NCBI GenBank assembly: GCA_000004985.1
Contig: GG738884.1
Direction: 5' to 3' (one strand)
DNA from: Naegleria gruberi
Taxonomy: Eukaryota
DNA length: 64,000 nucleotides
The translations under genes were made by a program, and so were the position numbers. The number at the start of each line of letters is the position of its first letter. Position 1 is the first letter of the stretch. A model generated the notes under the pieces. The model had not been told where the DNA came from, did no database searches, and worked only from the letters and a program-made list of their open reading frames with translations. Below are positions 26,979 to 45,960 of the stretch, one piece after another.

Positions 26979-29929
26979 CTATTTTAATATTTTGTTGATT
27001 TTAGTACAGAAAACATCAGCTGTTGTTCTTAGAGAAAGAGATGATGTAGGTGGTGATCCAAAACAAGATCTATATTGGCATCTATTACCATAAAAGCCAA
27101 AATTACAATCACACTTGTCAAGTCCGTTGCAAATTCCATTTCCACTACAAACTAAACCATTATTGGCATAAATTCCATAACATTTAGAATACTGACAATA
27201 GGTACCAATTGAATCAGCACAATTAGAACAAGTTTCTGGAGCTATACAGAGTCCTCTGCCAGAACAAACTGTTGAATTGGAAGGAGAAATTGAATTACAT
27301 GTATAATTGGAACAAGTCAAACCAGAATAACCTTCATCACATAGACAAGAATTTGGAGATTGGCAATGGCCATGTGAAGAACAAACAGAAGGGTCTGTAG
27401 AATTCACACCAAAACATGTATACTCTTCTCTAGTAACTATTGCTGCACGACCATCAGAACAAGCAGTCAAATATGGAATTCCATCAAAGTATTGTCTTGG
27501 ATACAGTGCAGGTGTTGAAATTGTGGTAGAAAATCCTTGACTTGGATTTGTTTCATAAGCATTGTTAATTCCTGCAGTATACAGATTACCCTTTCTACTA
27601 ATAATATAAAATCTTCCAGAATAATCACATATATCCACAACATAGGAATCACCTATTGGTAAACTAGGTTTAATTGGTGATCCGTAGACATAATAAAATT
27701 GTCCTGTAGTGGAAATTAGTAACAAGTTAGTGTAAAATCCAATATACATTTTCCTAAATTTGATGTTTCCATTCATTCTTACAAAAGTTGGCTGATTTTC
27801 TAATCCACTATTTGAAATAAATCTCTCAGACCCTCCATTCCTACCACATCCATACACGTTTCCTCTATCTGTTAAAAGGAAAACATTATTCTGACCTGCC
27901 CTAATGTCAACAATTTGTTCATCAGGAGTTAAGAAGGAAGTGGTATTAATTTGAGTAAAGGAAGTGAAGGTACTTGTGGGTGCAGAGCTTCCTAATCCCA
28001 TCTGATAATAATTGTTTGCACCAATTCCCCACAATGTATCATTGTTAAATAGTACATAAGTATTTGCACTACCAACAGCTACCTTTTTTACATCATTTGC
28101 AAATAATACTGGACTATTGATGTTCGAAGATACTCCATTAAATGCTGAAGAAAGACCCCAACCATACACTTCTCCACTATTTGTAAATGCTATGGCAGTA
28201 TTATGTCTGATATCTATTGTTGAAATGTCTTTGTCTACAAAGGTTTGAGGGGCACTTTTTGGTGTCAATGATGGAACTCCAAAATTCAAACTATTACTAC
28301 AATCTCCCCAATAATCTAGAGCATTGAAATTTCCTGTTTCATTGTGTAACTTAGAGAAAACAAACATACACGATATTCCACCAACGATTTTAGAGACTGT
28401 GACATTTCCAGAGGCAAATGACGAAATTGAAAGCTTTCTTGGATATCTAATAGCACGTTCCTCTCCCAAAGTCAACACGGAAGCGGTATTGCTAGTTCCC
28501 CAAACATTCACTGATCCATCTGAGGTTATTGTCAAACCATGCACATTTGAAATTCTTGCCATAATTACTTGAGCATCATTTACCATGGTGACCTTATCGT
28601 AATTTGGTGTTGAGCTATGTCCAAGAAAATTAACATAACCCCACGAAACCATGTAGCCAGAGTTGAGTAAACATGCTGACGAATATCCAGCAGCAAAGCA
28701 CTCTGTGGTATTTTCAGTAATATTAATTCTCGTTGGGACATAGATTGATGTTATTGAGGAGTCTGGATATGATTGCTTGTAGGTATTATCTCCAAAACCA
28801 TAAACATCTCCACTATCCAATGTGACCAATGCATGTCCATATCCAAACACTACTCTTATCACTTTGGACGGAAGTAAAGTCACAGGTTGTGGAAACTCAC
28901 TTGTAGCATTGACTGTTGAGTTCCAACCTAACAATCCATAATAATTACTTCCCCATGTCCATAAAACACCATTTATATCAATGGCACCAGCTGCAGTTCT
29001 TCCAACTTCAGCATTACCTGGTCTTTGACCAGATGAAATTGTTGTAATATTTCTGAGTGATGGAATCATGTAGGGAATATATTCACTATTACTAAGTGGA
29101 GTACCTCTTAACCCAAGATTATGACATCCATAACTAAATACATGTCCATAATTGGTTACTGCAAATATTGTTTCACATGTATAGTATCCACCAATCGCCA
29201 CAGATACAAACTTGACATTTGTTAAAATTTGGGAAGTGTCTGGATCTGTGTATTGAGTGAAAGAGAATAATCTTGCCCAAATGCCTCCTGTGTTATGATA
29301 ATAAACCCATCCATCACTTGTCAATATTATACATGAACGAATACAGCTCATGTATGCTATCTTTCTACTACTTGAAAATGGATTACTGGCCTTACCAGCA
29401 TCAGTGTAAATGTAAATTAATTCTATGGATTATTTCAAAAGGGATTACAAACTAAACTAACTTAAATCTTACCTGGTTCTGACATGATTGCAGGAGGATT
29501 GAGCACTGCAGCTTGTCCATTTTCATTACTACCAGACACAAATACATATTGTCCTAGAGAATTATTAGTTGTTGTGTTGTAATATTCTAAAATATAAAAC
29601 ATGGCATGATGATGATTGACCAATTGTTGAACACTGTGTGAAACATCAAATCTTTCAATGCCACTCGCTAATTTCCATGATTCCGTACTATTTACCAGTA
29701 ATTTCTGTAGGATTGTATTAGAAATTGGATAGGTTGATGTTGGTACTGTTAATGCACCAAAACCATTGCTATTAAAATCTCCAAATGTATAGAGGTTTTT
29801 GCTGTTGATTACGTCTTGCGCTTCTACTTGTGTTAATATTACTGCATAATGTATTACTAAACAGGACAACAGAATTATAAAACAATAAATTCGTGATGAT
29901 GAATTGACTGCTGCAGAAAGTGTTAACAT
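26979..29929 (-). CDS. Secreted RCC1-like beta-propeller repeat protein with C-terminal EGF/tenascin-like Cys repeats; two exons.
   Basis: Exon 1 (29929..about 29473) encodes a signal peptide. A GTAAGA donor follows, the intron is about 50 nt and the CCATAG acceptor is near 29423. Exon 2 runs to the TAG stop at 26979. The protein has repeated WGxNxYGxLG-type blades (WTWGSNYYGLLGW, YGFGDNTYKQ, WGIGANNYYQMGLG), then CxCxxGYxGxxC EGF-like repeats. Confidence 0.65.
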
Positions 29930-30033: not shown

Positions 30034-32160
30034 TTAAAGAAAATCAAGGGTTGTAAAGTATTTGGGAAGGTAGAAATCTGAAGAATAGCTCAATTTCATT
30101 CTCTTGAAGAGTAGGTCCTTAATATATTCAGCTTGCATTGTATCCAGTGATTCAAGTGAAAAATATCCACATTGTTTTAGAGCTTCAAGTTCTAGAGTTT
30201 CATCAGTAAACCTTGAGTAATGGTATAAAAATCCACATGACCGAACAGCTCTCAGGTTGAATTCCCAATCTTCCATAATTTCGTGTGGTACAAATGAATA
30301 AAATTGAAATGCTGTTTCAAATTTGTTAATGCATGATAATACTATTTCAGGATCTGATTTAACTTTCAAAGCCAAATGTTGAATCAAATATGTATTCTTC
30401 TTACAAACTTCCACAACAGTTTGCTTATCTTTTTCATATATAGCTTGTTGAATCTGATGATCAATATAGTCAAAGTAGTTTGGGTATTTTTGCATAACTT
30501 CAATGAGCAGATCTATCAGTTCAATTTGCATCTCAGAGGATGAATAAATTAAAGAAACTGGGTGTTTTCTGATGAGGTCTAATTGTTTCTCTGGTGGAAA
30601 ACATTCAATTAGTGATGGATGATTATTTAACATTTCATCGACCAAAGCTTCTTCTTCCAAAAAGTGTGGTGGAATAATTTCCAGCCAACCATCATTACAC
30701 CTATCGTTAGATAACAGAGCTCTCACGAATTCTCTATCATTTTTCATATATTCTGGCACTTCTATATCAGTAATTTTTCTACATTTTTGTGCCATGAATA
30801 ATAGAATATCCTTGTCTTGCTTGAGTTGTGGAGAAATAAACTCATAATTTTCAATATCAACTCTTAAAGATATCAATATTAATTCCTTATCATTACGTAA
30901 TTTTTCATTCAGTAAATCCACGAAAAGACAGTCATACGGCTTATTCTCACAAATTATTTGTAAAGCGTCCATAATAAATTCTCTATTACTTCCAAGCTCT
31001 GAGCATTCTAAAGTTTTACGCAACTTTGGATCTATTGATAAATATCTCAAGCAAAATTCTGGATCTGATTTCAACTTAATGGAAGCCAAACTGAATATAC
31101 AATGATCAATTTCAATAAGTTTCAAAACAAATTCTGGATCTTCCATCAGGCTCTTATGCGCAAATTGAAAACTCTGTGACTTGGAAATACAAGCCTTTTC
31201 AACTATTTCCTTATCTTTTCTGAAAGATTCATCTGCAAATTCAAGACTCAAGCCATCATTAATAACAGCACATAAAGTAATTTCTCTATCGAGTTTCAAC
31301 TGATCAGAAATAAATTTCAAACAATAGCCATTGGTTTTAAGTACTTGTATCATTTTACACTTGTCATTCCTTATTTCAAATGGGAGGTCTTCAAATTTTG
31401 AGTTTTTGTAGGGATCTTCAATATGATAACCTAGTATATCTATATCATTAACAGCCAAAAAAACATGCTTATTTTCTTGTAACACTTTCTTAAACCATTC
31501 TTCATTGTACAATAATGATTCATCTGCACTTTCAATGGAATAAATCGATTTCTGAACAGCTTTTGACATGAAATCTTCAGATTTCAATAGGTCTTCATCA
31601 ACTCCGCAAAGATATCTATGATCCGACTCCACAATTTCTAGAATAAACTCAATATCACTAGCAAGTTTATCTGCTAGAAATTCCAAAACATGGAATGTTT
31701 GAAACTTTGACTTTAACATTGCTCTTACAATTTCCTTGTCTCCTCTCAATTCTTCACTTCCTGCAGCAAACATGCCATTATAAACAGAGATTAGTCTCAA
31801 TAGTAATTCTCTATCTTTTACACAAACAGCTTCTAATGGAATAAAGTTAATGATAGTATCTCCACTATCAACCCAAAATCTATCACAATACTTTTCCATA
31901 ATTTCAGCAAACATTATACCATCCCGTATCAATTCAATAGGACAAAACACAGGAAGTGTAGAAGAGGTTTTTACATGAAAATCAACATATTCCAAATATC
32001 TACTTTTCGATTCTATAAATTTCCGCATATTTTGTGATTGTCTTTTAAATTTTCTAGTTAATAATTGTTGTTGTTCTCGGAGGTGAATTTCTTCTTGTTT
32101 TGATGATGAATAAATTCCATCACTTACATTAAAAATCACTCTCCCTTCATCTTGTTGCAT
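30034..32160 (-). CDS. DUF4116-like repeat protein with tandem DKEIV...L.YAS... helical repeats.
   Basis: Repeats such as GDKEIVRAMLKSKFQTFHVLEFLADKLASD, KDKEIVEKACISKSQSFQFAHKSLMEDPEFVLKLIE and RNDKELILISLRVD...QDKDILLFMAQK. Confidence 0.5.
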   Translation of the reverse strand: MQQDEGRVIFNVSDGIYSSSKQEEIHLREQQQLLTRKFKRQSQNMRKFIESKSRYLEYVDFHVKTSSTLPVFCPIELIRDGIMFAEIMEKYCDRFWVDSGDTIINFIPLEAVCVKDRELLLRLISVYNGMFAAGSEELRGDKEIVRAMLKSKFQTFHVLEFLADKLASDIEFILEIVESDHRYLCGVDEDLLKSEDFMSKAVQKSIYSIESADESLLYNEEWFKKVLQENKHVFLAVNDIDILGYHIEDPYKNSKFEDLPFEIRNDKCKMIQVLKTNGYCLKFISDQLKLDREITLCAVINDGLSLEFADESFRKDKEIVEKACISKSQSFQFAHKSLMEDPEFVLKLIEIDHCIFSLASIKLKSDPEFCLRYLSIDPKLRKTLECSELGSNREFIMDALQIICENKPYDCLFVDLLNEKLRNDKELILISLRVDIENYEFISPQLKQDKDILLFMAQKCRKITDIEVPEYMKNDREFVRALLSNDRCNDGWLEIIPPHFLEEEALVDEMLNNHPSLIECFPPEKQLDLIRKHPVSLIYSSSEMQIELIDLLIEVMQKYPNYFDYIDHQIQQAIYEKDKQTVVEVCKKNTYLIQHLALKVKSDPEIVLSCINKFETAFQFYSFVPHEIMEDWEFNLRAVRSCGFLYHYSRFTDETLELEALKQCGYFSLESLDTMQAEYIKDLLFKRMKLSYSSDFYLPKYFTTLDFL

Positions 32161-35065: not shown

Positions 35066-38000
35066 TTAGGCATAATCAAACTCTGTTTCAGAGGATTTGC
35101 TTTTCATTCTATTCTTGAGCCATTTAACTGCATGACGTAATCCAGTTGAGAAATAATTCTGAGTTGCATTAATGGCCAAATTGACATAACTTGATGGTTT
35201 CACACAGACAAGTGCAATAAATGCTGAAATTCTGAAAGCTAAACCAAAGATAACCATCATGTAAATGGTCATTCCCAATTCATTCTCTTCATATCCCATA
35301 TTCTTCAAACTTGTTGAAATGTCATAGATATCACTATATTTGGTAATTTCAATGAGATAGGCATTTTCATGACTGTAGGTAAGGAAAGATATCCATGGCA
35401 TGATATTGATAGGGAATGACATGGCTTTCAATGAAGGAAGAGGTGTTGTTGATCCACTGAATGTGTTAAATATGAAAACTAAAACAACAGCAGTCAATTG
35501 AGCTATTCCTGGTTGAACTATAATCGAAACTAGATATCCTAAACCATATGATGTCCAATAAACTAGTAATAGAACATAATAATATTCATAAACTGGTGCT
35601 CTTGGTGAAACTACAGTGTAATAAATTGTTAAAAAGACAATTGGTGCAATCAAGTTTACAATGAAAAGTGATAAATCTTTAGCCCAGAAATAACAGAAGG
35701 TACTTAATCCTGTTTGACTTTCTCTATTGAAAATTAAACTTTCCTTACCAAATGCTCTGAGTGCTGACATGGCAGCCATCAAAGCCATGCCAAGTGTCAT
35801 GAGTGAAGATGTGGCAGCAACTGGATCATCAACAGGTTGTTTACAAATTTCTTGTAAACCACTTGGACATAATTCATAAATTCCCTTTGGTGGAGGACCA
35901 ACATATACCTTATTATGGTAAACAAGACCCAAGAATGCTGAACAAAGGAAAATTAAGAAAAAGTCCAAAATTAAACTTGGCAAAGTTCTCAAAATTTGAG
36001 TGAAACTTCTCTTGAAACACATCCAGAATTGAGCAAAATAGGAAAATCTTGGATTTTTGAATTGAACTTGTTCTGGTTGATCATTAATTGAAGATTCGCT
36101 ACTAGTTTCGGTTGTTGTTTCTTCTTCGTATAAGTGTTTCTTCATTTCCCAAACTTCTGGTAATGAGATAGGTTCAAACTCTATATCTTTCTGACATGGA
36201 ACTAAACCTGCAGAAACATCAATTACAAAATCAGCCAAATTAGTTCCATTAGGTTTTGGAAATCCTAATTCCTTTTCAAAGTATTCTTCAACTCGTGTGA
36301 CAGGTCCAAGATAAATAGTTTTACCACCCTTTCCTAGCAATAGTAAATTATCAAACATGTTAAATATTTCATATCTAGGTTGATGGATAACAGTAATAAC
36401 TGTCATTCCTGATTTGGCAATTTCTTGTAAACATTGACAGACTTCCATAGATGAACTACTATCCAAACCAGAAGTAGGTTCATCAAGGAAGACTGCAATT
36501 GGACAAGCAACCAATTCAATGCCAACATTAACTCTCTTTCTTTGACCTCCTGAAATTCCACGTTTTTCTTGATCTCCAATTATGGCATGTCTAACATCTT
36601 GTAAATTCAAAACATGAATCACATCATTGACAATGGCGTCAATTTCCTTAGATGGTGTACTTGCATCAAGTCTGGTCTTTGCTGAAAAATATAAAGTTTC
36701 TTCTACTGTGCAAGAACTAATCATAATGTCATCTTGTGGGACGAAACCTAGCTTACTATTGTAATTCGAAAGGTTGTCTCTCTTTCCATTGACGAATACT
36801 TGACCTAATTGAGTTCCATAATAGGCACGATTTGAGAGTGTGGTAATGAAAGTACTTTTACCAGCTCCTGATAAACCCATGACAGCTGTCAATTTGCCAT
36901 GTTTAATTTCACCAGTGACACTATCCAAAACTCTCTTTCCAGAACCTTTCAATGTAAGACCCAAATCCTTGAAACCAATATCAACAGTAAATTGATTAGT
37001 TCTAAAACCAGACGGTTTGTCACTTGCCAACAAATTTGAATTTTCATTAACATCTTTCAAGAACAATTTAGTTCTCTTATGTTTCTTAACATTCTTCAAA
37101 CTATATCTAACATAAAATCTGAAAGCAGCTTCATAAGAAACATAAATAATTGCAATAATAATCATGATAATGACAACCATGGCCAATCCACCAAATTCCA
37201 TTCTATCACTTTTTGTTCCTTTTGGACAATTAGAAAAGAATGAACAACCAGTTGGTTTGATACTTCCCTCACGACAATAATAACCAGCTGGGCATAGGAT
37301 TTTCAAACTGGCATTTGGACAATAGTAAGATTCTGGACACAGCTTGTAGGTGAAGGATCCTTCTGGACAATATTGAGATTCTGAACAGTTTCTAATAGTA
37401 TGAGTGTTTTCACAGTAGAAACCTGCTGGACAGAGTGACTTCTTGTAGGATCCAGGTGGACAATAATCCATAGAATCATTCTTGAATTCACAGAGAGATG
37501 GTTCAATAACTGTATCATTTAAACAATAGGTATTTTCTGGACAATCCAGATTATCTGTGGTTGTTCCATTTTCCATAATAACTACTTGTCTGGCCATGTT
37601 ACAATAATCACCTTCCTTACATGATTCAATTCCAGTGAAATATGGAGTAGTATCACCAACCTTCAATTTCTTAATATAGTAACCAGGAGGAACTGGTAAA
37701 GGACGTTCATATTTTGTTGTACAGATGGTGCCATCTGGACAATCCTCACTTCTCCATAAACTACTGCCGAAACATGTTTGTTTTCCAAATTCTCCATCAC
37801 ACATCAATGGATATGGCATTTGAATGTATGGACAAATGTAACCACTTGGACATGGAATTCTAATTCCAGACAAACAGTAGCTCTCCACAAGACATGGTAT
37901 TCTAGTAAGCGATCTATAAATGAAATCTCCTGGATTTGTCAAAGTATACGGAACTACCAATGTGCTTCTGAAGAGATTACACAAATTACCTCTCAAACAT

Positions 38001-40270
38001 GAGCTTGATAACATGGCAAATTGATTTTCATTGAAATCTCGTGGAGGGGCTTGATTACATGCACCTGAGAATGATTTCAAAAAGACATTATCAGGATCTG
38101 TCTTTAAAGTATCACAGACAAGTTTGAATCTGTCATTGGCTTCAATTTCCCATCTCTTTCTAGTAATGGAAAGGAAGAGGAATTGATTGTTTTCTGAAAC
38201 GAATAAATCAATTACCTTTCCAAGTGCTAAGAAATCATTAACATTATTGGTCATGGCCACGTATCCTTGTTCAATTAAGGAAGGATCATCAGGAGTGGAT
38301 GAGGTTAAATTGAGTGAAATTGCAAGAACTTGCACATTTTTCTTCATTGAAATGTAAATATTTTCTTGCCAGTAACCAAAGAAGAAGGTAAATAAATCTT
38401 CCTGTTGAGTGAATGCTCCTGTGAAAATGTCAATTTCGCATCTGGCTTTTGAGGCATCTTCCATACATTGATCAGTGTCAATTTGTCCTCCTTTCAGATA
38501 GTCAAATTGGCAAATGACAGATGGATTCAAGTGTCTAGTTTCGTTATAAGCAGAAATACCATTCATTGTTTGATTAATGTCCATGAAACTTGATTTGATA
38601 ATTTCAACTTCATCATTCATTTCAGTAATGGTTTGAATATTGTCCAAACATTTACCATTATTCGAATGTTGATTGGCTCCACAATTGAAAGTTTGTGGTC
38701 TATTAGCTGTGTTTCCTTCATTGAAGTTAAAATTATAATTGACAAATTCTGGAATGTGATGTAAAACAAAGGAATACCTTTCGTTTGTTTCACCTTGTTT
38801 CTTCAAGCCCAGACCAATATATAAATTTTGAGAAGGTGGAAATTCTACATTCTCACATGTAGTTTGCAAAGAGAGTTTGATTGGCTTTCTCAATTTATCA
38901 AGAATTGGATAGGCAACAGTAATGGAAGATCCCTCAGGAGCTTGATAAAAAGTATTTAAATTATCTGAATTGACCAAATCAATCTTTCTATAAGAATCTT
39001 GGAACTCTACAATTCTAACTTGCTTTGAAGTGTATATCATAATAAGAGATCTTGAATTAGCCAAATGATTTCTTTCAAAAAATGTTTCTTGAATTCTCAT
39101 TGGTGCTGTCTTTGAAAAATTACCAAAATGAATAAAAGTTTCAATTCTGAAATCTTCATCACTTTCTACATCCCATTTCAATGGAACTGTCATGTAATTC
39201 TGATGCATTACAGTACCTCTAATGAAAATGAGTTGATATCTTGGTTTTTGACCGTCATCAATAATTTTGAGAACACCAACAGAGTAAACATTTTGAGTTT
39301 GAGTATCTCTGAACATTTTCAAATCCAGAACTTGTTTGACATTATCATCCAAACTGTAGAACCAATATCTGTAAAATTCTACCTGATAAAAATTAAACAC
39401 TCCATTAATGTTTAACTTTCCATATTTAGTTACTTGAACTAGGGCAATTTGATCTTGGTCATCTCCAATACCAGTCACTGAACCATATACTTCTCCTTTC
39501 AATAGTTCTCTATAACCAGGATACTTGTAATAAATAGTAAAACCACCATTATAGAAATCTTTAGTATTAACCATGACAACTCTTCCATTTTGATAAAATT
39601 GAAAGAGACGGCCAAAGGATTTACGTCCATTACTTGAATCAACAGCTCTAATAGCAACTACACCTTTACAATCATCTTCTAAAGGTGAATCAATTCCACC
39701 ACATTTGTACTGAAATTCTCCTTTGTTAACAACTTGAACATCTGAGAATATTTCAGGAGTTCCAGCAAATGGATTTGTTTTAGAGCACCACAAGTCAGTA
39801 AAAACAATTGGCATATCAGCAGTACCACATCCATCTTTTGGTCCTGTGTAGAGAGTTGGAGTATCATCATCGCCAATAACTCTTAATTTGATGTTAGAGG
39901 TTGCTCTCTGTTTTTGAAAACTTCTCTTATGTGAACTCTGTGAGTCTATAGCATCTCTCAAATGTTGATACAGAACAGAATCTGGTCTTTTGTAATCAGA
40001 TTGTTGTTCATTCACATGGCTTGCCTTAATGGATGATTCTTGTCTTATGAGAGTATGGTCTTGGAACAAGTATGGATTCATGGAAGGAGCAACAGCAGCA
40101 TGCACACTGCTGATAGTTACTCCTGTTTCTGATAACATGTTATTGCCATTATTGAACTGGTGAAATGTGAAGAAAAGTATCAAGAGTGTGGAAATGATGA
40201 ACAATCTCACACCATGAGAAATTCCGAAAGGATTTGTTGTGGTAGTATGTTGTCGAAGAAGAGGTACCAT
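35066..40270 (-). CDS. ABCG-type half transporter (NBD then TMD) preceded by a roughly 950-aa extracellular domain with Cys-rich repeats and an extra TM helix; 1734 aa.
   Basis: Walker A (GLSGAGKST), ABC signature (ISGGQRKRV) and Walker B (VFLDEPTSGLD) are followed by six TM helices (White/ABCG order). Upstream are an N-terminal hydrophobic leader, a large ectodomain, a CPxGxYC-type Cys-repeat stalk (CPPGSYKKSLCPAGFYCENTHTIRNCSESQYCPEGSFTYKLCPESYYCPNASLKILCPAGYYC) and a TM helix (GGLAMVVIIMIIIAIIYVSY). Confidence 0.85.
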   Translation of the reverse strand: MVPLLRQHTTTTNPFGISHGVRLFIISTLLILFFTFHQFNNGNNMLSETGVTISSVHAAVAPSMNPYLFQDHTLIRQESSIKASHVNEQQSDYKRPDSVLYQHLRDAIDSQSSHKRSFQKQRATSNIKLRVIGDDDTPTLYTGPKDGCGTADMPIVFTDLWCSKTNPFAGTPEIFSDVQVVNKGEFQYKCGGIDSPLEDDCKGVVAIRAVDSSNGRKSFGRLFQFYQNGRVVMVNTKDFYNGGFTIYYKYPGYRELLKGEVYGSVTGIGDDQDQIALVQVTKYGKLNINGVFNFYQVEFYRYWFYSLDDNVKQVLDLKMFRDTQTQNVYSVGVLKIIDDGQKPRYQLIFIRGTVMHQNYMTVPLKWDVESDEDFRIETFIHFGNFSKTAPMRIQETFFERNHLANSRSLIMIYTSKQVRIVEFQDSYRKIDLVNSDNLNTFYQAPEGSSITVAYPILDKLRKPIKLSLQTTCENVEFPPSQNLYIGLGLKKQGETNERYSFVLHHIPEFVNYNFNFNEGNTANRPQTFNCGANQHSNNGKCLDNIQTITEMNDEVEIIKSSFMDINQTMNGISAYNETRHLNPSVICQFDYLKGGQIDTDQCMEDASKARCEIDIFTGAFTQQEDLFTFFFGYWQENIYISMKKNVQVLAISLNLTSSTPDDPSLIEQGYVAMTNNVNDFLALGKVIDLFVSENNQFLFLSITRKRWEIEANDRFKLVCDTLKTDPDNVFLKSFSGACNQAPPRDFNENQFAMLSSSCLRGNLCNLFRSTLVVPYTLTNPGDFIYRSLTRIPCLVESYCLSGIRIPCPSGYICPYIQMPYPLMCDGEFGKQTCFGSSLWRSEDCPDGTICTTKYERPLPVPPGYYIKKLKVGDTTPYFTGIESCKEGDYCNMARQVVIMENGTTTDNLDCPENTYCLNDTVIEPSLCEFKNDSMDYCPPGSYKKSLCPAGFYCENTHTIRNCSESQYCPEGSFTYKLCPESYYCPNASLKILCPAGYYCREGSIKPTGCSFFSNCPKGTKSDRMEFGGLAMVVIIMIIIAIIYVSYEAAFRFYVRYSLKNVKKHKRTKLFLKDVNENSNLLASDKPSGFRTNQFTVDIGFKDLGLTLKGSGKRVLDSVTGEIKHGKLTAVMGLSGAGKSTFITTLSNRAYYGTQLGQVFVNGKRDNLSNYNSKLGFVPQDDIMISSCTVEETLYFSAKTRLDASTPSKEIDAIVNDVIHVLNLQDVRHAIIGDQEKRGISGGQRKRVNVGIELVACPIAVFLDEPTSGLDSSSSMEVCQCLQEIAKSGMTVITVIHQPRYEIFNMFDNLLLLGKGGKTIYLGPVTRVEEYFEKELGFPKPNGTNLADFVIDVSAGLVPCQKDIEFEPISLPEVWEMKKHLYEEETTTETSSESSINDQPEQVQFKNPRFSYFAQFWMCFKRSFTQILRTLPSLILDFFLIFLCSAFLGLVYHNKVYVGPPPKGIYELCPSGLQEICKQPVDDPVAATSSLMTLGMALMAAMSALRAFGKESLIFNRESQTGLSTFCYFWAKDLSLFIVNLIAPIVFLTIYYTVVSPRAPVYEYYYVLLLVYWTSYGLGYLVSIIVQPGIAQLTAVVLVFIFNTFSGSTTPLPSLKAMSFPINIMPWISFLTYSHENAYLIEITKYSDIYDISTSLKNMGYEENELGMTIYMMVIFGLAFRISAFIALVCVKPSSYVNLAINATQNYFSTGLRHAVKWLKNRMKSKSSETEFDYA

Positions 40271-40701: not shown

Positions 40702-41634
40702 TTAATTGGCAAATCCTGAAGTACCAGTGAAACCTCCTCTACCACCACTACTGCTACCACCTCCAACAAAGGCAGTTCTTTCTCCAACATATCCATATCC
40801 AGCTCTACGAATACCAAGAACATCCATAACACAATTTCTGAAAGCAGTAATGATACCACAAATAATTGAACAACAAATGCAAATAGCAACTACAATGACA
40901 ATGACAACAATAGCAAAGAGTGGGAGTCCTTCATTACACTTTGAGAATTGATCACCAACAGTATTGAAAGTAACAGTTGGTTGATAAGCAATATTGGAAC
41001 TGATAGCACCAGTTGAGAAGGTGACAGTTTTTCCATTGACAACAGCACTTCCTCCTGAAGTAGTTACATTGTTAGCAAGATTGACATCAGAAGAGAAGAT
41101 GAACTTTGAAGTAAGCATGCCAATTGGTGAGCTTTCCTTATAGTAATAGGAGACATAATTTTGCTTCTATGATGTGTTACAAAATTTCATGTGTGAAAAT
41201 CAATCAATACTTACATTAGAATTAACTCTAATTGGTCCATTAGCACTATATGTATAACGAATGGTAAGTGTAGTGGTGAGTGTGCTTGGAGTGGAAGGGA
41301 AGAAATTAGCAACAATAAAGTTAGAATCTTGTTGAGCTGAGACATATTTAGATGACAATGAATATCCTCCAGTCAATACATCAACTCTAACAGAACTCAT
41401 GTCAATAGAAGAAGCAATTGAATAAGGAACTGCTCTAGCAACAGTTGAGTAGGATCCAGTGAATTGATAGCTGTAAGTTTCCACAACTGAAACAGCACAT
41501 GAACTGGCACTGAGTGTAACGTCTGATTGAATACTAGCAATTGAATATGTCTTTTGAGCATTACAAACTCCGAGAATGATCATCAAGATCATCATCATTA
41601 CTACAGAACTTGTTGAACTGATAATTTGCTTCAT
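40702..41634 (-). CDS. Type-I membrane protein with signal peptide, Ser/Thr-rich ectodomain, one TM helix and a Gly-rich cytoplasmic tail; two exons.
   Basis: Exon 1 spans 41634..41215 and ends ...NSN before a GTAAGT donor. The intron is 41167..41214 (48 nt) with a CATAG acceptor. Exon 2 spans 41166..40702 in frame (KQNYVSYYYKESSPIGMLTSKF...). The TM helix is LFAIVVIVIVVAICICCSIICGII. Confidence 0.6.
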
Positions 41635-43962: not shown

Positions 43963-45960
43963 ATGTTCAGATACGGCATTGCTTTTTTATTGATTCTGTG
44001 TTGCAGCATTAATGTTTACAGTTTGTCCTCAAAAGTTGTCAGCTGCACCGATGCCTCATGCACAACACAACTTGCAGTTCAAATATCTTTAGCCTTTGGA
44101 AATCAAAAATCGATGTTAGTAGAATTATCAGACACTGTGAATGAAAAGGGAGAAAAAGTTAATCTAAGGCCTATTAAGATTGTTATTCAGAAGTCAGCTC
44201 CGAAGGCTGTGTATCCTCTATTGTATGTGAAAACGTTTAACGGAAAACCAACAGAAAGCATAATTTACAAAGATGACATTCTTGTTCCAACTTGTGATGA
44301 TTCTTCAAAATCAGCAGCTCCAACTTGTGGTTGGGTAAAGGATAGCCAAGGAAACAAAATACCTGATAGCCAAGGCTTTTGTTGCTCCTGTTCAGTAGGA
44401 CAAATGTTCGGGGACAGTTCAGCGTCTAATAGAGGCGCTCTTAATTGTGGATTTATGCAAATGAAGTCTTCTGCTCACTGTTTACGTCTGGGAGAAGTTT
44501 ACTGGGATGCTTATGAAATAGAAGGTTATGTTATGTCATTTGAAATATCAGTATTCATAGGTGAAACTGGGTTTGATGATATTGGAAAAGTCACTGTTTC
44601 ACCATCATCTAAGTTAGCCCAACTGCCAAAAGGAGGAAGAGTAGAGCTTGAAGGGGACTTCTCTGCTTACAAATCAGTCCCACTTTATGAAAGCAAGTAT
44701 CTATTCATTCCAAGCTCTCCCAAAACAAGTCCAATAGTGGTCAACGGCCAAGCCAACTGGATGTTTATTGACAAATCAATGGTTACCTTAAGTGGTTCAG
44801 AATGCGATAAAATTGGTGTGTCATATGCTCAGTTCAGAAACCAACCAAATGCATGCTCAAGACCAGCACTTACTTGTCTAGCAAATCAAATAGAAGATCT
44901 AAGACTTGCAGACGTTGAATTAATGAAATCAGGCCTAAAATCTGGAAAATATATTGTTTCGAATTTTGGATCATTTGCTGTTAACAAAACCAATACAGGA
45001 AATGTATTAGAAAAGTATTTGGATGAAGATACTAATTCTCAGATCAATTTGTATATTAATGGTGAAAATGTAAAGTTTCTAATAACCAAAAGTGCAGCTG
45101 AAATTTCAGAAGCATATGTTAAAACATTTACTTCCCTTTCCAAAGAAGGTGAAATGTTGGTTAGTGTGAAAAACAAAGGCGCAAATGGTTGTTCCTACGT
45201 TGTAACAGTAACAGAATGCAGTGACAACATTCTTACAATTGTTCAACAAACAGTATTTGTAGATGCATCTAATAAGAAAGAATTAACCTTTCAAGTTAGA
45301 TCAGAGCAGAAACTAGCCACAACCAATCAGTGCAAAGTAACTCTGTTGTTTTCTGATGGTGAAAAAATTCAAGATATCACAGTTACCTTTGACTCAAAGG
45401 ATTACGCTTATGAAAATGCAATGGAAAGCAGTGGAGAACAAACAGGAAAAGTGGAAACAGAAGGAGATCACTCACTAGGTCAATGTAAATGTAACTCCCC
45501 ATTCGATGTGGTCTGTATTGTTCTCAATTCAAGCTCATGTACCTCCTACATTATTGGTTGGGTTGCCTCAATAGTTGGTATTATTGCAACTCCTGTAATC
45601 TTTGTCTTTTTGTGGAGATGTGGTCTATTTGGCCTAATGTTCAAGACGTGTAAATGTTGTGCTTGTTGCTGTTCCTTTCTTCCAACAAGTATTATGAATT
45701 GTCTTATTGGTCCTTATAAGAAGAAATCCAAAAAATCCAAGAAATCCAAAAAGAAGAAACGTCACCACTCTTCCTCTGATAGTGAAGATGAAAAGAAATC
45801 CAAAAAGAAAAAGAAGAAGAGCAAGAAGAATAAGAAGAGAAGGAAGAAGAGACGTCAACAACGTAGAGATGATTTTGAAATGGACTATTACAATGACAGA
45901 TACTCAAAGAGGAGAAGTCACAAGGATATTGAACATGATCCAATTGCTAGGTATAAATAG
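43963..45960 (+). CDS. HAP2/GCS1-like class-II-fusogen-type membrane protein (candidate gamete fusogen).
   Basis: Signal peptide (MFRYGIAFLLILCCSINVYS), then a roughly 520-aa Cys-containing ectodomain. It carries a motif I recall as HAP2-GCS1-domain-like (...PTCGWVKDSQGNKIPDSQGFCCSCSVGQMFG...SSAHCLRLGEVYWDAYEIEGY), a single TM helix (IIGWVASIVGIIATPVIFVFLW) and a strongly polybasic cytoplasmic tail (KKKSKKSKKSKKKKRHH...KKSKKKKKKSKKNKKRRKKRRQQRR). Confidence 0.5.
   Translation: MFRYGIAFLLILCCSINVYSLSSKVVSCTDASCTTQLAVQISLAFGNQKSMLVELSDTVNEKGEKVNLRPIKIVIQKSAPKAVYPLLYVKTFNGKPTESIIYKDDILVPTCDDSSKSAAPTCGWVKDSQGNKIPDSQGFCCSCSVGQMFGDSSASNRGALNCGFMQMKSSAHCLRLGEVYWDAYEIEGYVMSFEISVFIGETGFDDIGKVTVSPSSKLAQLPKGGRVELEGDFSAYKSVPLYESKYLFIPSSPKTSPIVVNGQANWMFIDKSMVTLSGSECDKIGVSYAQFRNQPNACSRPALTCLANQIEDLRLADVELMKSGLKSGKYIVSNFGSFAVNKTNTGNVLEKYLDEDTNSQINLYINGENVKFLITKSAAEISEAYVKTFTSLSKEGEMLVSVKNKGANGCSYVVTVTECSDNILTIVQQTVFVDASNKKELTFQVRSEQKLATTNQCKVTLLFSDGEKIQDITVTFDSKDYAYENAMESSGEQTGKVETEGDHSLGQCKCNSPFDVVCIVLNSSSCTSYIIGWVASIVGIIATPVIFVFLWRCGLFGLMFKTCKCCACCCSFLPTSIMNCLIGPYKKKSKKSKKSKKKKRHHSSSDSEDEKKSKKKKKKSKKNKKRRKKRRQQRRDDFEMDYYNDRYSKRRSHKDIEHDPIARYK

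Follow-up and report, generated by a model that had tools for sequence, protein, structure and literature searches.

A stretch of 64,000 nucleotides from Naegleria gruberi (GenBank assembly GCA_000004985.1, contig GG738884.1; referred to here as the window) contains on its minus strand, at 35066–40270, an open reading frame (ORF) for a transporter of the ATP-binding cassette (ABC) type and the ABCG subfamily in which the transporter core is preceded by an N-terminal region of about 1000 residues. The questions raised by this locus are whether these parts belong to a single protein, which fold the N-terminal region adopts, on which side of the membrane it lies and what it could contribute to transport. 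From the N-terminus, the predicted parts are a hydrophobic leader, a beta-propeller, a cysteine-rich stalk, an extra transmembrane helix (TM0), a nucleotide-binding domain (NBD) and a six-helix transmembrane domain (TMD); the part between leader and TM0 is called the ectodomain. The reading favoured here, with moderate confidence, is that of an ABCG protein of the branch carrying Pfam family PF19055, which would act as a dimeric exporter and would use a stalk-mounted propeller as an exoplasmic platform for binding a partner or acceptor.

The ORF starts with ATG and runs for 1734 codons plus a stop, with no internal stop codons. Its translation is identical to the N. gruberi NEG-M protein XP_002674440.1 (EFC41696.1; UniProt D2VN79), for which 'abc transporter family protein' is the sole public annotation and for which the public gene model equals the ORF. 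By ORF and identity the feature at 35066–40270 is a complete single-exon coding sequence, as an earlier note on this DNA had proposed in describing one uninterrupted 5.2-kb exon, and the ABCG gene is a genuine, intron-free N. gruberi gene. The window has a G+C content of ~33 %, long ORFs are dense on both of its strands, and a neighbouring ORF is also identical to an N. gruberi protein, which identifies the window as nuclear DNA of this species.

An alternative is that two genes were merged here, by mis-assembly or through a missed stop or intron, or that the big domain is in fact cytosolic. A separate gene for the N-terminal 1000 codons, an objection that the earlier note had raised against itself, was not borne out, the ORF being continuous and the same fusion occurring in independent genomes and contigs. 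The N. fowleri protein XP_044561707.1 (1678 aa) is collinear with the query over its full length, the fused propeller, stalk and ABCG core were found elsewhere in Willaertia magna KAL9658626.1 (1546 aa) and in NCBI assembly GCA_006365135.1, and a Logan contig of the Sequence Read Archive encodes a fused protein in a single 5.1-kb gene. A merger is suggested by two observations and nothing else. One is that another public assembly has this gene with its protein split into pieces of 1423 and 318 aa. The other is a paralogous locus in N. lovaniensis (PYSW02000022.1, 2116–6944; genes C9374_004976 and C9374_004977), where a propeller-stalk model of 891 aa is followed after 58 bp by an ABC-core model of 612 aa that starts at Walker A. 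Stops interrupt the frame, and a tblastn search of the locus found no counterpart of query residues 954–1091 (the last Cys repeats, TM0 and the juxtamembrane segment). This paralogue could be decayed or truly split, or could reflect an assembly or annotation error. A further N. lovaniensis protein, an orthologue of 721 aa, was considered as an ectodomain-less member and rejected; its gene starts 293 bp from the contig end and the model is truncated, its length being explained by the gene running to that end.

The earlier note had reported no obvious homology for the very large ectodomain. It is not featureless, its distal 565 residues forming a seven-bladed beta-propeller in the structural model. 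AlphaFold2 was applied to residues 100–1025 with a 63-sequence alignment (A1) and returned a mean predicted local distance difference test (pLDDT) of 85.8 and a predicted template modelling score of 0.79; a single-sequence run on residues 41–1025 (pLDDT 30.4) was discarded. Residues 100–169 had a pLDDT below 50, with disorder to about residue 170. Beyond this point the model consists of successive four-stranded sheets, then three helices (residues 706–751) and then a stalk of hairpins. The confident model superposes on solved seven-bladed propellers, and residues ~141–705 (38156–39850; coordinates of all parts of the gene lie on the minus strand), about 565 residues or the distal two thirds of the ~990-residue ectodomain, are therefore predicted to be a propeller of this kind. 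It is preceded by a poorly conserved and probably disordered segment (residues 39–140; 39851–40156) that aligns mostly with gaps in N. fowleri and has low pLDDT, and it is followed by a helical connector seen in both alignment and model (residues ~706–751; 38018–38155). The propeller starts with a conserved WCxxxNPF motif, has an invariant R461 and E508-F509, and contains an insertion at residues ~510–635 comprising a Cys-containing hairpin and a helical sub-domain. The connector is preceded by the consensus VSxNGQHxF...RxxWEL, which in N. gruberi reads VSENNQFLFLSITRKRWEI.

The propeller has no Pfam match: neither WD40 nor any other curated propeller family was found in query residues 41–670, in the ectodomains of four complete homologues or in the propeller-stalk fragment P0125. 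Its resemblance to the propellers of LGI1 EPTP, Sema, E. coli YncE and WD40 proteins is at the level of fold only, with identities of 5–10 %, and it differs from these in having its own motifs and the inserted Cys-containing and helical sub-domain. The top three Foldseek matches were native Chlamydomonas mastigoneme chains (8wa2; E ~5e-6), with TM-scores of only 0.12–0.15, and these matches probably reflect the elongated, Cys-rich hairpin stalk of the model. A propeller profile hidden Markov model (HMM) was built from six unambiguous homologues. An earlier HMM made from the columns of A1 had been dropped, as MAFFT had force-aligned every N-terminus and its matches were circular. With the six-homologue profile, complete propellers were detected in additional proteins, either fused or fragmentary, and all named carriers are Heterolobosea (N. 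gruberi, N. fowleri, N. lovaniensis, Willaertia magna and Acrasis kona).

The proximal part of the ectodomain is a Cys-rich stalk (residues 752–1025; 37196–38017) of beta-hairpin repeats with Cx5C or CPxGxYC spacing, modelled by AlphaFold2 as a long run of short beta-hairpins. The ectodomain contains 11 Cx5C motifs, 10 of them in residues 781–1025, where 2.2 were expected from shuffled sequences (maximum of 8 in 5000 shuffles). This agrees with the CPxGxYC repeat of the earlier note. The likeness to TNFR and ephrin-receptor repeats that it had also proposed found no counterpart in Pfam, as the TNFR, ephrin-receptor-like GCC2_GCC3 and furin-like families were unmatched in residues 791–1025 at E<=1. 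EGF, laminin-EGF and other Cys-repeat families were likewise unmatched at this threshold in residues 1–1025 and in three sub-segments, and a Lustrin_cystein hit (E=0.5) was dismissed as meaningless. Giant proteins without an ABC core (P0126, with 6346 aa and 34 matched stretches, P0128, P0132, P0144, P0149 and P0226) also contain the 15-residue CPxGxYC unit, repeated in tandem tens of times. The unit is a widespread repeat for which no Pfam family match was found in the stalk of the query.

Searches for relatives of the whole ectodomain gave results that depended on the method. Pfam returned zero matches for query residues 1–1100, for the ectodomains of the four complete homologues and for P0125, and also for the distal regions of five further ABCG proteins with giant ectodomains. 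A word-indexed protein search with residues 1–1073 found nothing beyond the query's own cluster, and the same kind of search with a propeller alignment (A2) found two unnamed fragments only. An exhaustive HMMER search with residues 1–1025 against 1.84 billion representatives gave 881 relatives at E<=1e-3, 78 of them at E<=1e-30. The absence of obvious homology claimed in the earlier note therefore holds for curated families and fails overall. Residues 149–1024 are common to N. fowleri, the environmental proteins P0125, P0158 and P0171, and Acrasis kona AKO1_009805, and from about residue 365 onwards the homology extends to several more fused proteins. The proximal ~350 residues (~670–1023) are common to dozens of proteins of 1100–1950 aa with downstream ABCG cores, including a Rigifila ramosa transcript (1575 aa) and an Acrasis kona 'ABCG24' (1068 aa). 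The last Cys repeats are also present in chytrid members (~850 aa, with PF19055). The stalk is the part of the ectodomain that is most widely common within the branch to which the core belongs.

The position of the ectodomain relative to the membrane was examined from the hydrophobic segments, cysteines and charges of the translation. The leader occupies residues 16–38 (40157–40225), with its hydrophobic core (h-region) at ~22–36, and the N-terminus of the N. fowleri protein is hydrophobic too. TM0 (residues 1026–1044; 37139–37195) is strongly hydrophobic (Kyte–Doolittle 2.95) and lies ahead of the NBD, with a K/R-rich segment on its cytosolic side. It is followed by a cytosolic juxtamembrane linker (residues 1045–1100; 36971–37138) delimited from the translation and the N. 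fowleri alignment. Both the leader and the additional helix had been postulated in the earlier note. A scan of the translation before residue 1025 found 38 Cys and nine N-x-S/T sequons. All but one of these cysteines (37 of 38) are kept in N. fowleri although identity in the ectodomain is just 25–48 % (distal 25–39 %, proximal 48 %), a pattern that is a signature of a disulfide-bonded exoplasmic domain. Lysine and arginine residues (K+R) were also counted in the 15-residue flanks of TM0 in 65 family members with a detectable TM0. The C-terminal flank contains 4.3 of them on average and the N-terminal flank 1.35, and the C-terminal count was the higher one in 58 of the 65. By the positive-inside rule this excess indicates a cytosolic NBD and an N-terminal domain on the exoplasmic side. 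The conserved cysteines, the sequons and the charge bias of the sequence thus support the prediction, made in the earlier note, that the large domain is outside the cytosol, where it is probably glycosylated. The same three features argue against a cytosolic big domain, as the 5.2 kb without a stop, the collinear orthologues in independent genomes and contigs and the placement of TM0 exactly between the Cys-rich part and the NBD, as across the branch, argue against merged genes. An artefact of either kind is regarded as highly improbable and is effectively refuted.

The transporter core was found as the earlier note had described it, with Walker A, signature, Walker B and six transmembrane helices all in place. 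The NBD (residues ~1101–1340; 36251–36970) was delimited from Pfam, solved relatives and motifs. It contains Walker A GLSGAGKST (residues 1132–1140; 36851–36877), Q-loop FVPQDD (1176–1181; 36728–36745), signature ISGGQRKR (1239–1246; 36533–36556), Walker B with the catalytic Glu IAVFLDEP (1258–1265; 36476–36499), D-loop SGLD (1267–1270; 36461–36472) and H-loop TVIHQP (1293–1298; 36377–36394). The ABCG-type TMD (residues ~1414–1700; 35171–36031) matches PF01061 and PF19055, and six hydrophobic helices follow the NBD, starting at residues 1432, 1484, 1536, 1566, 1583 and 1672. Pfam placed ABC_tran (PF00005) at residues 1115–1267, ABC2_membrane (PF01061) at 1414–1635 and ABC2_membrane_7 (PF19055) at 1493–1690. 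The best solved relatives of the core are CDR1, PDR5 and ABCG16/25/2/5/8/1, with 130–240 bits. With an NBD ahead of a six-helix ABC-2 type TMD and all ATPase motifs present, the protein belongs to the ABCG subfamily. Identity between N. gruberi and N. fowleri is 77 % in the NBD, 61 % in the TMD and 37 % in TM0. The ATPase is complete and conserved and the transporter is probably active.

The intact ATPase bears on whether the ectodomain could have a role independent of transport, for example in adhesion, recognition or matrix binding, or as a part shed near TM0, with the ABCG portion serving as an anchor or acting separately. Such a role would be compatible with the occurrence of the Cx5C unit in very large repeat proteins without an ABC core (e.g. 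P0126) and with the N. lovaniensis paralogue, in which the 891-aa propeller-stalk protein and the core are annotated as separate adjacent genes with no intervening TM0. However, Naegleria, Willaertia and environmental lineages have kept the fusion, and every ATPase motif is intact, which argues for a joint function, and independence of the two parts is judged to be improbable.

The affiliation of the core within the subfamily was investigated with residues 1001–1734, which matched 2039 proteins at E<=1e-40. The PF19055 domain of the query scored 164.6 bits against a curated cut-off of 22.7. Among the best 120 of the 2039 matches, PF19055 was present in all 120; these proteins scored 350–1100 bits, were mostly 800–1280 aa long, and several had been automatically named ABCG24 or ABC transporter G family member 24/28(-like). 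Named organisms among the core matches were Acrasis kona, Andalucia godoyi, cnidarians, chytrid and zoopagomycete fungi, Capsaspora, Perkinsus, green algae and poppy. The difference between these scores and the 130–240 bits of solved canonical ABCG and PDR proteins, together with PF19055 in all, indicates branch membership, and the core is on sequence grounds a half-size ABCG of the Adp1/ABCG24/ABCG28-like branch. No solved structure from this branch was present among the PDB matches to the core.

Retrieved proteins of the branch were then surveyed for where Walker A lies and for cysteines and hydrophobic helices upstream of it. Of 106 gene models beginning with Met, 53 have a detected TM0 that follows at least six Cys with Cx5C motifs, and many of the others were truncated. 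The upstream helix typically lies ~100–130 residues before Walker A. The position of Walker A itself ranges from about residue 200 to 1387, corresponding to a nearly continuous range of ectodomain sizes from ~100 to ~1250 aa. The N. gruberi protein has the layout of the branch, with a leader, a Cys-rich exoplasmic domain and one extra transmembrane helix ahead of the NBD, and since a Cys-rich region and TM0 are usual in the PF19055 branch this layout is not itself new. The departure from canonical ABCG proteins emphasized in the earlier note is instead the normal state here, its premise holding for the well-studied members only. According to this survey, an exoplasmic domain at the N-terminus is general in the branch and modular, being composed of a conserved Cys stalk and of distal domains that vary in size. 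For five other ABCG24/28-like proteins (P0165, P0183, P0155, P0161 and P0168) with ectodomains of 1000–1400 aa, neither Pfam nor the Naegleria propeller HMM gave a match in the distal parts, and several different large distal domains seem to have been gained within the branch. A rough neighbour-joining tree of the cores, reconstructed without support values or a canonical outgroup and with some proteins, including N. fowleri, left out by a strict Walker A pattern, placed the propeller-bearing cores together, next to Acrasis and N. lovaniensis members, and the other giant ectodomains in scattered positions. This is a hint that propeller-bearing members cluster together.

Related arrangements are known from fungi and plants. 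Adp1 of Saccharomyces cerevisiae is, at ~1049 aa, far shorter than the N. gruberi protein. Adp1 (YCR011C) has a large soluble N-terminal domain with EGF repeats and belongs to fungal Group VII (Kovalchuk & Driessen 2010; PMC2848647), a group that corresponds to clade V of Winski et al. 2022 (PMC9426558). Its function was called enigmatic in the 2010 survey of fungal ABC transporters (PMC2848647), and one study has linked ADP1 to the uptake of glutathione-coated quantum dots (PMC4225547). By description, Adp1 resembles the N. gruberi protein in that its single NBD is preceded by a membrane segment and by a large, Cys-rich and soluble domain at the N-terminus, and followed by an ABCG-type TMD (PMC2848647, PMC9426558); the N. 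gruberi protein differs in having no Pfam EGF match and an ectodomain of ~990 aa of which the distal two thirds are a predicted propeller. In plants, ABCG24 and ABCG28 are long half-size proteins of the WBC type, with ~1040–1110 aa. The maize homologues of ABCG24/28 have 1040–1112 aa compared with ~600–750 aa for ordinary half-size ABCG proteins (PMC9409143). Like the N. gruberi protein, hits of the plant ABCG24/28 type carry PF19055, contain Cx5C motifs in a Cys-rich N-terminal region and possess a hydrophobic helix upstream. Unlike it, they have ectodomains of ~350–450 aa (Papaver P0123, with Walker A at residue 482) that the propeller HMM does not match. In the eukaryotic exporters ABCA1 and ABCA4, hundreds of exoplasmic residues stand over the TMDs and are believed to accept the transported lipid or pass it on. 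A likeness to these proteins would concern the mode of action only, as exporters with a large exoplasmic domain; ABCA proteins belong to another subfamily with a different TMD fold, and their extracellular domains are loops inside the TMDs without a propeller, instead of an N-terminal module with a helix of its own. A limited literature search found no papers on Naegleria ABCG proteins, on propeller-bearing ABCG proteins or on a conserved stalk with variable distal domains. The gene was thus already in databases and has the layout of a known ABCG branch, while the propeller extension and the modular picture are new as far as searched.

These comparisons allow a mechanism to be proposed. ABCG2, ABCG5/8 and ABCG1 are dimeric and move their substrates to the exoplasmic side by an ATP-driven process. 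By analogy, the N. gruberi half transporter would dimerize and ATP would drive a substrate from the cytosolic side or the inner leaflet to the exoplasmic side. Topology and fold would then place two disulfide-rich, glycosylated, stalk-mounted propellers on the exoplasmic side, exposed on the cell surface or facing the interior of a vesicle or vacuole, next to the point where the translocation path opens or over it. A partner or acceptor would most likely be bound there, so that the exported substrate is captured or passed on or the pump is kept at one location. Propellers of extracellular proteins are typically binding platforms, which favours this role, and a binding platform is considered more likely than receptor signalling across the membrane.

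Signalling of that kind would make the protein the sensor-plus-pump of the earlier note, a ligand-regulated transporter in which binding of an extracellular ligand to the propeller is relayed by the stalk and TM0 and gates ATP hydrolysis or transport. A propeller on a stalk with one transmembrane helix does recall the architecture of type-I receptors, the ligand-binding seven-bladed propellers of LGI1 EPTP and Sema are among the structural matches, and the ectodomain evolves faster than the core (25–48 % versus 61–77 % identity), as ligand-facing domains often do. However, TM0 is just 37 % identical between the two Naegleria species, ectodomains in the branch vary from ~100 to ~1250 aa, and giants without a propeller are scattered over the rough tree. 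Such variation in size and kind, and a TM0 that is only modestly conserved, are easier to reconcile with an accessory module than with a gate under tight coupling, and no precedent among characterized ABCG proteins was found in the literature searched. Gating by a ligand is therefore thought unlikely. It is similarly doubtful that the propeller and stalk form an extracellular receptor for a ligand or cargo that is mechanically coupled to the core via TM0, with transport being switched on by, or delivered to, the bound partner. If this were true, candidate partners would include a molecule on the surface of prey or bacteria, a carrier of lipids or sterols, or a cue for mating or between cells, and the protein would represent a class of receptor-coupled ABC exporters and a first functional handle on the Adp1/ABCG24/28 branch.

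Several points weigh against the interpretation as an exporter of the PF19055 branch with a stalk-mounted binding platform. The N. lovaniensis paralogue appears to be without a TM0 segment, which suggests that the fusion is not universally retained. In N. gruberi itself, K+R are equal (three versus three) in the 15-residue flanks of TM0, and a charge bias appears only over ~30 residues (RFYVRYSLKNVKKHKRTK). The leader may be either a cleaved signal peptide or a signal anchor; the topology is unchanged either way. The putative link to Adp1 and to Arabidopsis ABCG24/28 derives from automatic hit names, the bit-score gap and published descriptions. Location (surface or internal compartment), oligomeric state and substrate are proposed by analogy, and the results fit a role as an acceptor or binding platform and a role as an allosteric sensor without separating the two.

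Other ORFs of the window were also characterized. A 665-aa ORF on the plus strand (43963–45960), ~3.7 kb from the ABCG gene, encodes a full-length HAP2/GCS1 gamete-fusion protein (PF10699, E=2e-105, 353.7 bits) with a signal peptide, a C-terminal transmembrane helix and a basic tail. Its presence is consistent with the idea of sexual machinery in Naegleria. The remaining ORFs described are on the minus strand. Directly upstream of the ABCG gene are two short ORFs. The one at 41200–41634 has a DUF2207 N-terminal domain (E=3e-5) in addition to a signal peptide, and the one at 40702–41118 has a transmembrane helix and a tail rich in Gly. They resemble a single gene for a small membrane protein that an intron or a frameshift has divided. 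A 708-aa protein (30034–32160) is built of seven DUF4116 repeats (E=2e-61). In a 790-aa ORF (26979–29351), annotated as 'ATS1 domain-containing protein', an RCC1-like propeller is joined to EGF-like repeats at the C-terminus, and just upstream of this ORF on the same strand is a 155-aa ORF (29462–29929) with a signal-peptide-like start. The latter may be the first exon of the former, in which case the product would be a secreted RCC1-EGF protein.

The findings overturn nothing and refine the known diversity of ABCG proteins, correcting a view in which all of them consist only of an NBD followed by six transmembrane helices. The Adp1/ABCG24/28-like branch spans fungi, plants, cnidarians and many protists, and the arrangement described here is conserved across a protist class, the Heterolobosea. 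The predicted propeller is a concrete, expressible domain for tests of binding partners. It would also be a surface-exposed, lineage-restricted feature of a probably active transporter in a genus that includes the pathogen N. fowleri.

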